DNA from: a virus
DNA length: 27,991 nucleotides
Reading direction: 5' to 3' (one strand)
UHGV virus genome: UHGV-0114978
The notes under the pieces were generated by a model. It was not told where the DNA came from. It saw only the letters and a list, made by a program, of their open reading frames with translations, and did no database searches. Numbering within the stretch: the first letter of the stretch is position 1; each line of letters starts with the position of its first letter. Both the position numbers and the translations under genes were made by a program. Positions 3,731 through 24,559 of this stretch are shown here, piece by piece.

Positions 3731-5860
3731 CTATTCCTCAATACCTAACCTGCTTGAAACCTCCGGCATAACAGTAACCTGAAGGGTTTTTGATGAATCT
3801 GTGTTTTTAATTGCTATGCTGATATTGTCAGAAGTGCTGTTATTGTTTGACACTGTTATAGAGTTTGCATCCACCCCGAGTTTCGAATAAGCATCAGCAA
3901 AACTAAGACCAACACTTCCACCAACAACTCTATATGAACCATCAATTCTGAATGACGATATATTGTTATTGCTAACATCTCTAATTAGAACCCATATAGA
4001 AACGCCCCTGAAAACAAGGCTTGCCCCTGATGGTATTTGAAGTGATACAGTTCCTGTGGAACCGGGGGGGATACTGCCAGTATATTTAGTTCCGTGCAGA
4101 TATTTCCCCGGTAGATCTAAATACGAGGTGTCTGGCTGTAATAAATTATGTATATGTCTGCTATCTATGCTTCCAGACAGAACCATAGAATCATTTCCAT
4201 ATTCAATTATCCTTCCACCATCGTTACTTATTGTAAGTAATCCTTTGTTTCCTTTATTGTTTCTAACAGTTATATCAGAAGAATCCAGACGGACAATTGA
4301 TATATTTTTTTCTGTTCCATGACAATAATTTGATGAAATTTCACCTGTAACAAGTGACGTACATAAAATGTCTGAACTTCCATCACTGTCGCCAGTAATA
4401 GTGTTGCAGGAAATTAATGCACCATATACCAGACCTGTCGGAGATTCTCCAAATTGCTCTATAGTAATCCGTTTTGTGGTATTTGCTGATATGGTTATAT
4501 TATGAACATCGTCAGTTTGCGATGTTACTTTGATCCTTGATGAAACGGTATTTCCAGAAATAGTAACATTACTTGTATCATCCACCCATAAATATGACGA
4601 AAACGTATTACCTGATATGACTGAGTTACTCACCATTGAGTTCTCAAGCTCACATGAACCATAGCTATTGTTATGGTCATAATTTCCTATAATCCTTACA
4701 AATCCATTCTGGTTAATGAAGTTGTATGATGTTGCATTTTGTCCGCCATAAGTTGAGTTATGCGATGTTTCAGCATTTGTAACGCCTATATGTTGAAAAT
4801 GACCGGCATTTACAGAATCAGGAGCAACTGATGTACACCCTATTACTTTTGTGTTTTTGACAATTCTTGAATTAGGGTCATTCTCCAAATAATAGTTTTT
4901 TGCAACAAATGCCGTAGAGTAAAAGAAACCTTCAAATCTATTAAATAAAATCTGAATATCGTCATAATCTCTTTGGTCTTCATTTGCATAGCAATAAAAT
5001 GCTCTTGAAGACTCGGAGTAATCCTTGCATTTCTGAACGCCAGATAAAAGTGATCGGATTCTGCTAGATTTTATTCTAAATCCGTTGTGAATTAACGTTG
5101 CATCACCAACTAATGTTATTGGCTTAAACAATTCAACCTTATCAAAAACAAATTCACCACCATAAAATCCAAGTATAGCCCCTTCTGGTACTGCATTAAT
5201 AGCATTTTGAATTGCTACAGTATCATCTGTTATGCCGTCTCCTTTTGCACCAAAATCACGAACACTAATGGTGTCTCTCATCTTATCCTGGAACGTTCGG
5301 TACACAGCCCCAGAACCATACTGAATAAACCAACCAAAACCACCAACAACCCCGGCGATTGCAGCATCGACATAATTACGCATTGAGCGATTATTTACAG
5401 CATCCTGCTCAAGTGATGGATCTGCAAGGTTAGAAATTCTGTTTTGCTTTGCATCGTAATATTTTGCAAGCAGAGAGGGCTTCATCAATGCACGTCTGAA
5501 CCACCCAAAACATTGCTGGATCAGCATCGTCAGGTAGTCAAAGGCATCTTCATGCACTTCGGGGAAAAATTTTCCCTGATTGCGAAGGTCTGTCTCCTGC
5601 ACTACATCAAGCACACGATCTATCGTAATTCGCCATCCAGTAGCAAGCGGAGACAGAAGAACCACAGAACCGCCACTATAAGTGCCCGCCCCAGTTACCG
5701 TATAACCGGTATCCAGGACCAATTCTGTTACGTTCCCGTTCAGGTCAGACACCTGAACAACCAGGTCTGATTTTCTGAAAATTCGAAAAGTATACGGAAA
5801 CGATGTCGTAACGCCGTTACCGGTGTATTCGTTGTGGTCAACTTCGGTTGAGACCGTCAT
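3731..5860 (-). CDS. tailspike / receptor-binding protein with right-handed beta-helix (probable polysaccharide depolymerase)
   Basis: 709 aa. N-terminus (MTVSTEVDHNEYTGNGVTTSFPYTF...) resembles the virion-attachment domain of T7-type tail fibers. Motif DFGAKGDGITDDTVAIQNAI is typical of pectate-lyase-like beta-helix caps. GGAG RBS 8 nt upstream. Markedly AT-rich compared with neighbouring virion genes. Confidence 0.85.
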   Translation of the reverse strand: MTVSTEVDHNEYTGNGVTTSFPYTFRIFRKSDLVVQVSDLNGNVTELVLDTGYTVTGAGTYSGGSVVLLSPLATGWRITIDRVLDVVQETDLRNQGKFFPEVHEDAFDYLTMLIQQCFGWFRRALMKPSLLAKYYDAKQNRISNLADPSLEQDAVNNRSMRNYVDAAIAGVVGGFGWFIQYGSGAVYRTFQDKMRDTISVRDFGAKGDGITDDTVAIQNAINAVPEGAILGFYGGEFVFDKVELFKPITLVGDATLIHNGFRIKSSRIRSLLSGVQKCKDYSESSRAFYCYANEDQRDYDDIQILFNRFEGFFYSTAFVAKNYYLENDPNSRIVKNTKVIGCTSVAPDSVNAGHFQHIGVTNAETSHNSTYGGQNATSYNFINQNGFVRIIGNYDHNNSYGSCELENSMVSNSVISGNTFSSYLWVDDTSNVTISGNTVSSRIKVTSQTDDVHNITISANTTKRITIEQFGESPTGLVYGALISCNTITGDSDGSSDILCTSLVTGEISSNYCHGTEKNISIVRLDSSDITVRNNKGNKGLLTISNDGGRIIEYGNDSMVLSGSIDSRHIHNLLQPDTSYLDLPGKYLHGTKYTGSIPPGSTGTVSLQIPSGASLVFRGVSIWVLIRDVSNNNISSFRIDGSYRVVGGSVGLSFADAYSKLGVDANSITVSNNNSTSDNISIAIKNTDSSKTLQVTVMPEVSSRLGIEE

Positions 5861-6016: not shown

Positions 6017-6036
6017 TACTGTATAAATATACAGTT
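6017..6036. promoter_or_regulatory. LexA binding site (SOS box) TACTGTATAAATATACAGTT
   Basis: CTGT-N8-ACAG with AT-rich spacer, near-perfect match to the E. coli SOS box consensus TACTGTATATATATACAGTA; ends 19 nt upstream of ATG 6056 and overlaps a TATAAAT -10-like hexamer. Confidence 0.75.
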
Positions 6037-6055: not shown

Positions 6056-6313
6056 ATGCAGCAGTATCACTATCCACTGGAAGACGGATTTACCGAAAGG
6101 ATTCACACGCCGGGAGGCGTCAGGTCACTGGTGGAAGGATCGCACTTGATGAAATTACTCCGGGATCTCGATAAGGATGGATTTAATGTCGATGGCCCAC
6201 TTGCCGAACTGACTGCACTGATTAACTACGTCACCAGCTCACAGATGTCTATGCGGGATCTGCAAACACATCTCGACTATTGTGCCGAACAATTACGAAA
6301 ACAAACCAGATAA
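6056..6313 (+). CDS. SOS-box-associated small protein (85 aa) homologous to the C-terminal domain of the downstream antirepressor
   Basis: Track ORF 6038..6313 begins at TTG; ATG 6056 has SD GGAGAAG 5 nt upstream. Residues about 34-80 align with Ant residues about 175-225 (by eye about 45 percent identity, for example LM.LL..L..DG..V.G..AELT...Y......RD.QTH..Y). Confidence 0.6.
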   Translation: MQQYHYPLEDGFTERIHTPGGVRSLVEGSHLMKLLRDLDKDGFNVDGPLAELTALINYVTSSQMSMRDLQTHLDYCAEQLRKQTR

Positions 6314-6345
6314 GGTTTGTAATTACCAAGTGGAGTGCTTATATT

Positions 6346-6360
6346 TACCTTTGCGGTAAA
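6346..6360. promoter_or_regulatory. palindrome TTACCTTTGCGGTAA (operator variant), copy 2
   Basis: One-base variant of the 15-bp palindrome, nested inside a longer inverted repeat GGAGTGC(6332-6338)/GCACTCC(6369-6375). Confidence 0.4.
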
Positions 6361-6451
6361 TTTACACCGCACTCCTCTTGTGCCATAGTAATCGGGCACT
6401 GGCAAAATCCAGTGCCGGGATTGGCGTCCCGGATTACTAAAAGGCGCATTC

Positions 6452-6471
6452 ACCGCGCAAGCGGTTTTTTT
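6452..6471 (+). terminator. intrinsic terminator ACCGC-GCAA-GCGGT followed by TTTTTTT
   Basis: GC stem with GNRA-type loop and a 7-T run, read from the sequence; sits 140 nt downstream of the 85-aa ORF and 160 nt upstream of ant. Confidence 0.65.
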
Positions 6472-6628
6472 ATGCGTATAGCACGGCCACATTCGTATTA
6501 TGGTGGGCTGTGTGGGGGCACCGAAAGGTGCGCCGGGTCCTTTTAGCCGGTTACGCCAACCCTGCACAGTTCACCACCAACCGATTGGCGTCGGTAGTGG
6601 TGATTAACCAGACTAAAAGGTAACCACT

Positions 6629-7324
6629 ATGACAGCTACAAAAAGCACGTCCATTTTTTCTTTCGAATCTCAAGCCGATATACGGGTAATCGTCATTAAT
6701 GGTGAGCCATGGTTTATCGCTTCAGATGTTTGTCGGGCTATAGGCATAGCAAACCATCGAGATGCTGTTCGAAAACTTGATGATGATGAGAAGGGCGTCG
6801 CTTCAACCGACACCCCTGGCGGTGAGCAAGAATCGATCATTATCTCCGAGTCAGGCCTCTACACACTGATCCTCCGCTGCCGCGATGCGGTGACACCAGG
6901 CACTATCCCATACCGCTTTCGTAAATGGGTTACAGGTGAGGTTCTTCCTCAGATCCGCCGCACCGGAAGTTACATTAAAAACTCGCTCCCGCAGGAAGAA
7001 CGCATAAAGATGGTTGCCGACCAGGTAGCCAACGCCACGGCGTCAGCAGTAATGCAGGCGATGAAGATAGAGAACAAAACCTACAGTGCCCCGCTGAAGC
7101 CCGGCTACCGCAGCCTGATTCATTCGCCGTCGGGTGTTCTCGGCCTGACGGAGAACTCACTGCTGATGAATCTGCTGAACCAGTTACAGGACGACGGGCA
7201 CGACGTATCGGGCGCGGCGGCGGAACTGACCACCATGTTCTGCTACATCGTCGGTGTGAGCAAATGCCTGCGTGATATCCAGACGCACGCGGAATACATC
7301 AACGACAAGGCAGGGTTCTTCTGA
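6629..7324 (+). CDS. antirepressor with N-terminal BRO-N (Bro/KilA-N type) domain
   Basis: N-terminal region FSFESQADIRVIVINGEPWFIASDVCRAIGIANHRDAVRKLDDDEK...SGLYTLILRC...FRKWVTGEVLPQIRRTGSY matches the BRO-N/phage antirepressor signature; 231 aa. Confidence 0.85.
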   Translation: MTATKSTSIFSFESQADIRVIVINGEPWFIASDVCRAIGIANHRDAVRKLDDDEKGVASTDTPGGEQESIIISESGLYTLILRCRDAVTPGTIPYRFRKWVTGEVLPQIRRTGSYIKNSLPQEERIKMVADQVANATASAVMQAMKIENKTYSAPLKPGYRSLIHSPSGVLGLTENSLLMNLLNQLQDDGHDVSGAAAELTTMFCYIVGVSKCLRDIQTHAEYINDKAGFF

Positions 7325-7430: not shown

Positions 7431-7619
7431 ATGGAAATCAACATCATTACATTGCTGAAGGCCATTATTGGCGGAGCGGGCTTAGGCTTTGCCCTACCAG
7501 GCGGATTATCTTTCCTGCTTCCTGCTTTTACTGTTACAGCTGGGATAGCCTATGCATTTGCTGTAGCTGGTGCTGTTGCACTCCCTGCTATCTATGCCGC
7601 AAAGAAGTTAGCCAACTAA
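7431..7619 (+). CDS. small Gly/Ala-rich hydrophobic membrane protein (62 aa)
   Basis: Strong RBS (GAGGGGGAAAC before ATG); two predicted TM helices rich in G/A (IIGGAGLGFALPGG, AGIAYAFAVAGAVALPAIY); stop is directly followed by the next ATG. Confidence 0.5.
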   Translation: MEINIITLLKAIIGGAGLGFALPGGLSFLLPAFTVTAGIAYAFAVAGAVALPAIYAAKKLAN

Positions 7620-7620
7620 A

Positions 7621-7953
7621 ATGCCTGATTTATCTTGGCTTGCGCCCAGAGATGCACAGCAATTGACAAGGTTTTATTTCATACTGTGCATTGCTTATCT
7701 TGCTGTTCATCTGATATGGGATGCCGTTTGCAAAGATACGCCTCCTTTTTCTTTGGATAAGTTGCAATACAAGATGAATGAGGTTTATTCATCATCTACT
7801 TTTGCAACCAGCGCATTCTTCATTGTTATTCTGTTCGATATGAAGAATCCACTGAGAACTTCAGATGCTTTCATATTCCCATTAATTATTGCTGCTCTAA
7901 CTGGCTTTATGATCTCATTATCAGCAATAGTGCCAAAGAAAGTAAATAACTGA
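7621..7953 (+). CDS. hypothetical integral membrane protein (110 aa, about 3 TM segments)
   Basis: Translationally coupled to the 62-aa ORF (TAA-A-ATG); hydrophobic segments FYFILCIAYLAVHLIW, FATSAFFIVILF, FIFPLIIAALTGFMISLSAIV; followed by a terminator. Confidence 0.55.
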   Translation: MPDLSWLAPRDAQQLTRFYFILCIAYLAVHLIWDAVCKDTPPFSLDKLQYKMNEVYSSSTFATSAFFIVILFDMKNPLRTSDAFIFPLIIAALTGFMISLSAIVPKKVNN

Positions 7954-8241: not shown

Positions 8242-9063
8242 TCACTGTGCAGTTTTCGCTGATCGATTTTCAGCTCTAAATTCAAGAACCGTTTCAATAT
8301 TTCTTTCCTTCAGCATATCAATAACATTTTTATTCATTTGACTATCACTGGTTAATAACTGGTAAACGTTGCTTCTCTCTTTATCAGAGTTTTCTTTAAC
8401 AGCTGCTTTGCATGCCAAATGCTTATTGAAATTTTCTACATCGCTAGTACAGGAATTTACGGCTGCTGATGAAATATCAGACGCTGAAGAAACACCGTCA
8501 TCCAAACGTTTTATAGCATTTTCTATACATGAGTTAAGGGAATAAACGACAACTGAGCGATACCCTTCAGACGCACACCATTCTAAATTTCTTGAAGGAT
8601 CGAGTGGTTTTACTTCGCTGGATTGAATTAACTTGTCAAAAACTGACTTATATTCAATCTGTTTTTTATCTATAGCCCATACTTCAGTAGCTGATTTATA
8701 ATTCCCCGTATGCCTATTAACATCAAATCCATGTTTTATAAGCAAATCTGCCCATGAAAGATTTATTGATTCATTGTTATGAGGCCATTTTCCTGTCAGA
8801 ACCGCCCCCATAGACCCCATATATCCGCCATATGATGGTATAGCACCATGGCTCAGTAACTTCTCTGCAACCACAGGGCAATTAATTACATAAGAGGCGT
8901 AAAGCCCATTCCATAAAGCCCCTCTATAGTAATCGCCACGATTAGGTTCTTTTAAGTCGATAGCCTTTGATAATTGTTCGCACGTTTTGCATGCATCAAA
9001 GTTATCCTTATTGCATTGCAATGAACTGGCAGCTGTAGGATTTACAGAGACTATTGAAAGCAC
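8242..9063 (-). CDS. Cys-rich protein with degenerate ankyrin-like motifs; probable secreted form starts at ATG 9083 via a -1 shift in an A7 tract
   Basis: Track ORF starts at GTG 9063. One nt after the upstream stop, ATG 9083 + A7 would encode MKKNFGIVLSIVSVNPTAASSLQC (a signal peptide) if read with a -1 slip or an A8 tract. LLSHGAIPS and LLIKHGFDVNRH look like ankyrin helix-turn motifs. Confidence 0.6.
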   Translation of the reverse strand: MLSIVSVNPTAASSLQCNKDNFDACKTCEQLSKAIDLKEPNRGDYYRGALWNGLYASYVINCPVVAEKLLSHGAIPSYGGYMGSMGAVLTGKWPHNNESINLSWADLLIKHGFDVNRHTGNYKSATEVWAIDKKQIEYKSVFDKLIQSSEVKPLDPSRNLEWCASEGYRSVVVYSLNSCIENAIKRLDDGVSSASDISSAAVNSCTSDVENFNKHLACKAAVKENSDKERSNVYQLLTSDSQMNKNVIDMLKERNIETVLEFRAENRSAKTAQ

Positions 9064-24482: not shown

Positions 24483-24559
24483 GTGGCATTAGCTCAGTTG
24501 GACAGAGCAACCGCCTTCTAAGCGGTTGGTCGCAGGTTCGAATCCTGCATGCCACGCCA
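24483..24559 (+). tRNA. tRNA-Arg, anticodon UCU (reads AGA)
   Basis: Hand-folded cloverleaf: acceptor GTGGCAT/ATGCCAC, U8-A9, D-stem GCTC/GAGC, anticodon stem ACCGC/GCGGT with loop CU-UCU-AA, 5-nt variable loop, T-arm GCAGG-TTCGAAT-CCTGC, discriminator G, encoded CCA. Confidence 0.93.

Follow-up and report, generated by a model that had tools for sequence, protein, structure and literature searches.

Two neighbouring genes in the virus sequence UHGV-0114978 raise the question of why one prophage should carry the same antirepressor domain twice, and which signal each copy answers to. The stretch analysed (the window, 27,991 nucleotides (nt) in length) encodes an 85-amino acid (aa) protein and, further along the same strand, a 231-aa protein with a BRO-N domain. 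We consider these to be, quite probably, two tandem antirepressors built on the same Rep-binding type of domain and responding to different signals, SOS in one case and small RNAs in the other. The proteins and domains concerned are:

6056..6313, plus strand: ant, the 85-aa free antirepressor, orthologue of the Ant protein of Salmonella phage SPC32H (match to the solved chain 5D50_E, tblastn to SPC32H ant, synteny)
6629..7324, plus strand: the 231-aa BRO-N::Ant-like antirepressor (identity to ORF4 of phage vB_EcoP_ZX5; PHROG 'anti-repressor' families)
6677..6949, plus strand: BRO-N domain of the latter, residues 17-107 (Pfam PF02498, E=2.3e-21)
7076..7306, plus strand: its Ant-like C-terminal domain, residues 150-226, a paralogue of the free Ant (5D50_E, E=1.9e-13; BLASTP, E=3e-16)

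A preliminary description of this locus, made from the sequence alone, had proposed that the small protein shares a domain with the last 50 or so residues of the large one. The shared domain was borne out and is wider than first drawn. BLASTP between the two translations (6056..6310 against 6629..7321) aligned residues 2-75 of the 85-aa protein with residues 150-223 of the BRO-N protein without gaps, 32 of the 74 positions being identical (43%, E=3e-16). The alignment takes in nearly the whole small protein, and the motifs named earlier (LM.LL, DG, AELT, RD.QTH and Y) all lie within it. Its Smith-Waterman score of 163 stands well above the scores from 2000 shuffles of either partner (26.4 +/- 4.4, maximum 61; z ~31), which rules out chance similarity. 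Both proteins also match phrog_450 (E=7e-48 for the 85-aa protein, E=6e-36 for the BRO-N protein) and the same solved chain, 5D50_E (E=1.4e-46 and E=1.9e-13, respectively). The BRO-N assignment of the larger protein was likewise correct, PF02498 scoring 76.7 bits against a cut-off of 25.6, and the arrangement of one copy free behind a LexA box and the other fused to BRO-N holds.

The chain 5D50_E, an 86-aa 'Anti-repressor protein' from the Rep-Ant complex of SPC32H, is the sole solved chain matching the 85-aa protein, over residues 2-84. With tblastn, the 85-aa protein was 86.7% identical to the product of the gene annotated as ant in SPC32H and SPC32N. SPC32H has ant at the same place, running divergently from the tailspike gene, and alignment of the upstream regions of the two ant genes takes in LexA box, ribosome-binding site and ATG. 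Judged by sequence, the 85-aa protein is the canonical, already characterised antirepressor of the phage genus. The relationship drawn earlier, in which the free protein was a spun-off copy of the tail of the big antirepressor, is inverted: the 85-aa protein is the orthologue of SPC32H Ant (PDB 5D50), and the BRO-N protein is apparently a second antirepressor that carries a diverged copy of Ant as its tail. According to a summary of the SPC32H work (PMC9638917), Ant is a tetramer that takes up two dimers of Rep and so breaks apart the Rep tetramer that binds DNA. No family for the Ant domain was found in Pfam or NCBIfam; the lone Pfam hit, DUF724, fell below the cut-off and is noise.

The BRO-N protein also has a studied counterpart. 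It is identical at 230 of 231 residues to the 'anti-repressor' ORF4 encoded at the same locus of vB_EcoP_ZX5, whose overexpression pushes the phage towards lytic growth, with lysogens falling from 1e9 to 1e6 and repressor mRNA by 75% (PMC9782041). In that study, ORF4 was treated as the sole antirepressor, with SPC32H and the Ant-like tail unmentioned (PMC9782041), and the small gene upstream of ORF4 is annotated as 'hypothetical protein' in the ZX5 phage record. Among 24 full-length homologues of the BRO-N protein (68-88% identical), mean pairwise identity was 0.76 in the tail, 0.73 in the BRO-N head and 0.57 in the linker. The tail is thus as conserved as the head and the linker less so, as would fit a functional domain. 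From its relationship to Ant, the fused tail is predicted to bind Rep.

A Rep-type repressor is present in the same prophage. In Escherichia coli strain SCZE5, the repressor of this prophage (WP_000836290.1, encoded outside the window) matches SPC32H Rep (5D50_A) over its whole length with E=1.9e-41 and the crystallised Rep C-domain (5D4Z_A) with E=4e-20. Of 50,697 phage records, 35 contain the Ant-like domain, free or fused, and all 35 also encode a full-length Rep homologue; only one further record has a full-length Rep homologue without Ant. Two phiV10-like prophages, one with an AntA::AntC gene and the other with a free 97-aa AntC gene, each encode a 194-aa helix-turn-helix protein at the repressor position. 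Short of biochemistry, the co-occurrence of Ant and Rep is the main argument for the tail as a Rep-directed effector. The two partners are unequally conserved between the window prophage and SPC32H: Ant is ~87% identical, but Rep (L004:13426-14010) only 41.5%. An antirepressor far better conserved than its repressor may be a hint that heteroimmune phages cross-react, a behaviour reported for the antirepressors of the Gifsy phages.

The control elements around the two genes are:

6017..6036, no strand assigned: LexA (SOS) box, TACTGTATAAATATACAGT, overlapping the ant promoter (pattern match with 0 mismatches)
6361..6389, plus strand: sigma-70-like promoter, TTTACA-17-CATAGT with TG, just upstream of isrK (consensus scan only)
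6396..6471, plus strand: isrK-family small RNA with an intrinsic terminator (Rfam RF01394, 77.9 bits against a gathering score of 50)
6496..6581, plus strand: C4-family antisense RNA (Rfam RF01695, 77.7 bits against a gathering score of 45)
6501..6608, plus strand: 35-aa open reading frame (ORF) that overlaps C4 and stops 20 nt short of the ATG of the BRO-N gene (ant2) (read from the sequence; an identical ORF occurs in phiV10)
6585..6620, plus strand: downstream C4 target sites, TTGGCGT at 6585-6591 and CTAAAAGG at 6613-6620 (exact complementarity)

From the LexA box, the plus strand thus reads through the 85-aa ORF, the promoter-like site, isrK with its terminator and C4 to the gene of the 231-aa BRO-N protein. 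The LexA box expected ahead of the 85-aa gene is present with a perfect consensus; it is unique in the window, where 0.03 such matches would be expected by chance, and the ribosome-binding site of ant, GGAG, lies 8 nt upstream of the gene. On our preferred reading, ant is under LexA control. SPC32H Ant is itself reported to be repressed by LexA and to inactivate a non-cleavable Rep (work attributed to Kim & Ryu in 2013 and Kim et al. in 2016).

The isrK and C4 RNAs between the two genes went unmentioned in the preliminary description, and their presence there indicates that the two copies answer to different signals. The isrK terminator (6452-6465) is followed by a T run, and the RNA contains two motifs complementary to C4, TTGGCGT at 6421-6427 and CTAAAAGG at 6437-6444. 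In C4, the pairing motifs are CCTTTTAG (6539-6546) and ACGCCAA (6553-6559); besides its exact complement in isrK, either motif has a further one downstream. The downstream copy of CTAAAAGG overlaps the Shine-Dalgarno sequence of the BRO-N gene, 9 nt ahead of its ATG at 6629. The 245-nt region folds far better than its shuffles (z=-4.7), and the position of the promoter at 6361-6389 fits that of PisrK in Gifsy-1 (PMC4825925). The isrK and C4 pair also precedes genes in many Shiga toxin phages and in APSE phages. At the ant locus itself, SPC32H, SPN1S and epsilon15 have the free ant alone, from which we conclude that the isrK-C4-BRO-N unit is an insertion; relatives from E. coli, Enterobacter (Tyrion) and some from Klebsiella have both copies. 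The 35-aa ORF is a possible, uncertain counterpart of Gifsy-1 orf45 or P1 icd, and its conservation may reflect only the underlying RNA. In vB_EcoP_ZX5, the annotation places the coding sequence of a 37-aa 'ash family protein' on top of the C4 region (L009 2111-2224, corresponding to about 6510-6623 of the window); this is probably an ORF call atop a non-coding RNA.

A scheme of the switch can be proposed from what was found here: domain homology and family assignments, a LexA box, RNA elements with complementary motifs, Rep co-occurrence and domain shuffling. LexA would occupy the box at 6017-6036, and DNA damage would remove it and allow Ant to be made. Ant would bind the presumably non-cleavable Rep-type repressor and strip it from its operator, and the prophage would be induced. 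The fused copy would, by analogy, be under the control of C4 and IsrK and independent of LexA. Pairing of the two short C4 motifs with their sites over the BRO-N ribosome-binding site would keep it silent, and the decoy copies of both sites in IsrK would relieve this block. Once made, the BRO-N protein would engage the same repressor family through its Ant-like tail, giving an SOS-independent, anti-immunity route to lytic growth, while the N-terminal head (BRO-N, AntA, Rha or ORF6N) would be an interchangeable generic module. The two inputs might also be coupled. No terminator was predicted between the stop codon of ant (6313) and isrK (6396), and SOS transcripts would therefore carry both C4-decoy motifs. 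In such a two-stage feed-forward switch, SOS-driven ant transcripts reading into isrK would titrate C4 and unlock the BRO-N::AntC protein, and the two versions of the domain might also form mixed tetramers; we regard this extension as doubtful.

The wider family of the domain agrees with two long-separated copies. It is small: an exhaustive profile search of 1.84 billion representative proteins returned 61 clusters at E<=1e-3. A word-index search with the C-domain only gave mostly short or partial proteins, and domain architectures were taken from the full-length and exhaustive profile searches. The neighbour-joining tree of the domain has two well separated clades. Clade 1 comprises free proteins of 82-115 aa, namely the SPC32H-type Ants and more distant free relatives. 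Clade 2, the C-module, is almost entirely fused, plus a few proteins of 95-97 aa that start inside the linker of the fused form and look like truncations. Eighteen positions are conserved across both clades, and four are fixed differently (L55M, V59I, S61G and S65C in the numbering of the 85-aa Ant). The pair is therefore not a recent duplicate; the two old clades, together with the absence of the cassette from SPC32H and epsilon15, rule out a recent tandem duplication. The modularity suggested in the preliminary description was well founded, as much the same C-module follows heads of the Bro-N, AntA, Phage_pRha and ORF6N types, and in E. coli the tails behind these differing heads are ~85-90% identical as proteins. 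Comparison of the sequences thus supports old paralogy combined with module shuffling. The free ant was detected in 529 of 5426 complete E. coli genomes (~10%), and the C-module, at >=90% nucleotide identity, in 470 of them (~9%), with up to three copies per genome.

The C-module was also seen at other locations. In related phiV10-like prophages, a free 97-aa C-module protein (L008 6001-6294) or an AntA::C-module protein (L010 10001-10531) is encoded next to the integrase. These integrase-adjacent genes end the early-left operon and represent a third location of the domain, where the prophage of the window has a DUF1382 gene. In Klebsiella (L005-L007, 6001-6288), the gene of a 95-aa C-module protein shares a small island with those of an AlpA-like regulator and a HicA/DUF1902 pair; in L006 an acyltransferase gene and a pectate-lyase-like (tailspike-type) gene follow the island. 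This island may be a prophage remnant or a satellite.

Several points weigh against a second antirepressor that acts on Rep through its tail. The Rep-binding mode of SPC32H Ant is taken from a secondary citation, and the C4/IsrK regulation proposed for the window is deduced from family membership and complementarity. The ZX5 experiment used an overexpressed glutathione S-transferase fusion, and its effect was partial (PMC9782041). The AlphaFold2 (AF2) model of the 231-aa protein had a predicted local distance difference test (pLDDT) score of 49.8, too low for a fold search. The tail is only 43% identical to the free Ant, and four positions are fixed differently in their two clades; it could bind another partner or serve oligomerisation only. 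The last of these would place the activity in the BRO-N head or the linker and leave the tail as a tetramerisation module with no contact to Rep. SPC32H Ant is a tetramer (PMC9638917), the 18 positions common to both clades could equally be core or oligomer-interface residues, and BRO-N heads occur with many unrelated tails in the PHROG 'anti-repressor' families. However, the C-module stays constant while the head is swapped among four families, suggesting that the tail carries the specific function. The module is moreover restricted to phages with Rep-type repressors, and free forms of the domain suffice as antirepressors in SPC32H. We consider a tail for oligomerisation only to be unlikely.

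The tetrameric state reported for Ant (PMC9638917) would also suit a heteromeric, dominant-acting pair, in which fused and free copies meet in mixed tetramers and the BRO-N protein poisons, tethers or potentiates Ant. The copies are encoded side by side, and 43% identity with conserved hydrophobic positions is compatible with co-assembly. Nevertheless, the two clades are old and well separated, SPC32H and epsilon15 get by on only the free Ant, the fused domain is lost in phiV10, and ZX5 ORF4 on its own favours lysis, which is no dominant-negative phenotype (PMC9782041); such a pair seems to us quite improbable. The loss in phiV10 bears on whether the BRO-N::AntC gene has any role in the switch. 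A 16-nt deletion (window 7170-7185) frameshifts the tail in phiV10 and in O157 typing phages 9 and 10; in phiV10 (L001 ~5268) it splits the BRO-N gene into ORFs of 194 and 29 aa (PhiV10p23 and p22). Since phiV10 is viable and temperate despite this frameshift, the tail is dispensable for the life cycle and the fused copy an accessory, which also weighs against our preferred reading. The gene is also absent from Salmonella relatives, and truncated-looking fragments of 95-97 aa exist, as would be expected of a decaying passenger, a moron remnant whose similarity to Ant is merely historical. Against such decay, the great majority of gene copies are intact, with the C-module as frequent in complete E. 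coli genomes as given above (470/5426), the tail is conserved like the head, the regulatory RNAs and their target sites are intact, and a 99.6% identical protein is active on overexpression (PMC9782041). We hold a decaying passenger to be very improbable, and two antirepressors under separate control remain our preferred reading.

Each part of the locus resembles a known system. With the Ant/Rep pair of SPC32H (Kim & Ryu 2013, J Virol 87:11775; Kim et al. 2016, PNAS 113:E2480; PDB 5D50, 5D4Z), the window shares an orthologous free Ant, the position of the LexA box, a locus beside the tailspike gene and the repressor family; in addition to the divergence of Rep, SPC32H differs in having no downstream isrK-C4-BRO-N cassette. 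Gifsy-1 has a small LexA-controlled antirepressor and a larger one downstream of IsrK and a C4-like RNA, STnc1160 (PMC3121763, PMC4825925), and in its isrK-orf45-anrP unit IsrK activates translation of the prophage-inducing antirepressor (PMC4825925). The dual-input arrangement is the same in the window, where the isrK and C4 families are both matched. However, the two Gifsy-1 antirepressors are far apart and mutually dissimilar, whereas the pair of the window is adjacent and shares its effector domain. The 85-aa protein gave no alignment at E<=100 with STM2621.1n, chosen as the Gifsy-1 small antirepressor by its position after dinI, and none was seen between AnrP and the BRO-N protein. The 85-aa protein is thus analogous in function to the Gifsy GfoA/GftA antirepressors but, for want of similarity, no member of their family.

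In the immI region (c4-icd-ant) of phages P1 and P7, the a and b motifs of c4 pair with a' and b' sites. The layout recurs in the window: a C4-family RNA and an antirepressor gene lie on one transcript, and two short motifs in the RNA are the complements of a'/b'-type sites ahead of that gene. The window differs in that the b' site of P1 lies over the icd ribosome-binding site, here over the antirepressor's own, and in that an isrK-type RNA with decoy sites stands ahead of C4. As far as tested in Pfam and PHROG searches, P1 Ant shares no family with the antirepressor of the window. The BRO-N, KilA-N, AntA and Rha regulators are said to be modular, with generic heads and variable C-terminal modules that are also found alone, a view ascribed to Iyer, Koonin & Aravind (2002, Genome Biol). 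The C-module differs from this group in having no Pfam or NCBIfam model, yet it is tied to a solved repressor-binding protein.

The window holds a phiV10/epsilon15-like (Uetakevirus) prophage of E. coli, flanked by yfgI and guaA and, over the region compared, 100% identical to strain SCZE5. Host DNA with yfgH and yfgI occupies the left end (1-1335), and the junction with the prophage falls at ~1117 to 1335, directly ahead of the lysis genes. The other end of the prophage, on the guaA side, is outside the window. The tailspike gene precedes ant:

3731..5860, minus strand: tailspike gene with a pectate-lyase-like domain, divergent from ant, arranged as tsp-ant in SPC32H

Three genes lie 3' of the BRO-N gene, at 7431-7619 (plus strand), 7621-7953 (plus strand) and 8242-9063 (minus strand). 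The products of the first two are small, hydrophobic-looking and possibly membrane proteins, and the third encodes 273 aa; a Pfam search with the three products gave 0 matches. The phiV10 and SPC32H annotations have other genes at this position, and these three may be morons. A tRNA gene (24483-24556, plus strand; tRNA-Arg in the SCZE5 annotation) is located within the prophage between the terminase and portal regions.

All components of the locus are of known kinds (SPC32H Ant/Rep, BRO-N antirepressors and C4/IsrK immI-type control), and it is no new kind of system. Two inputs are already combined in Gifsy-1; the peculiarity of this locus is that one type of domain is driven by both. Work on Salmonella phages has taken the small LexA-controlled protein as 'the' antirepressor and work on E. 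coli phages the BRO-N protein, two strands without mutual citation in the literature examined. As far as we have searched, the primary SPC32H papers apart, the explicit link between the tail of a BRO-N antirepressor and the crystallised Ant is new. An Ant paralogue as the tail of a BRO-N protein offers a testable mechanism, engagement of Rep as in PDB 5D50, and delineates a domain family for which neither Pfam nor NCBIfam has a model. It also suggests that these prophages would be inducible by two separate inputs, SOS and small RNAs, which bears on spontaneous induction and on cross-talk among co-resident prophages.

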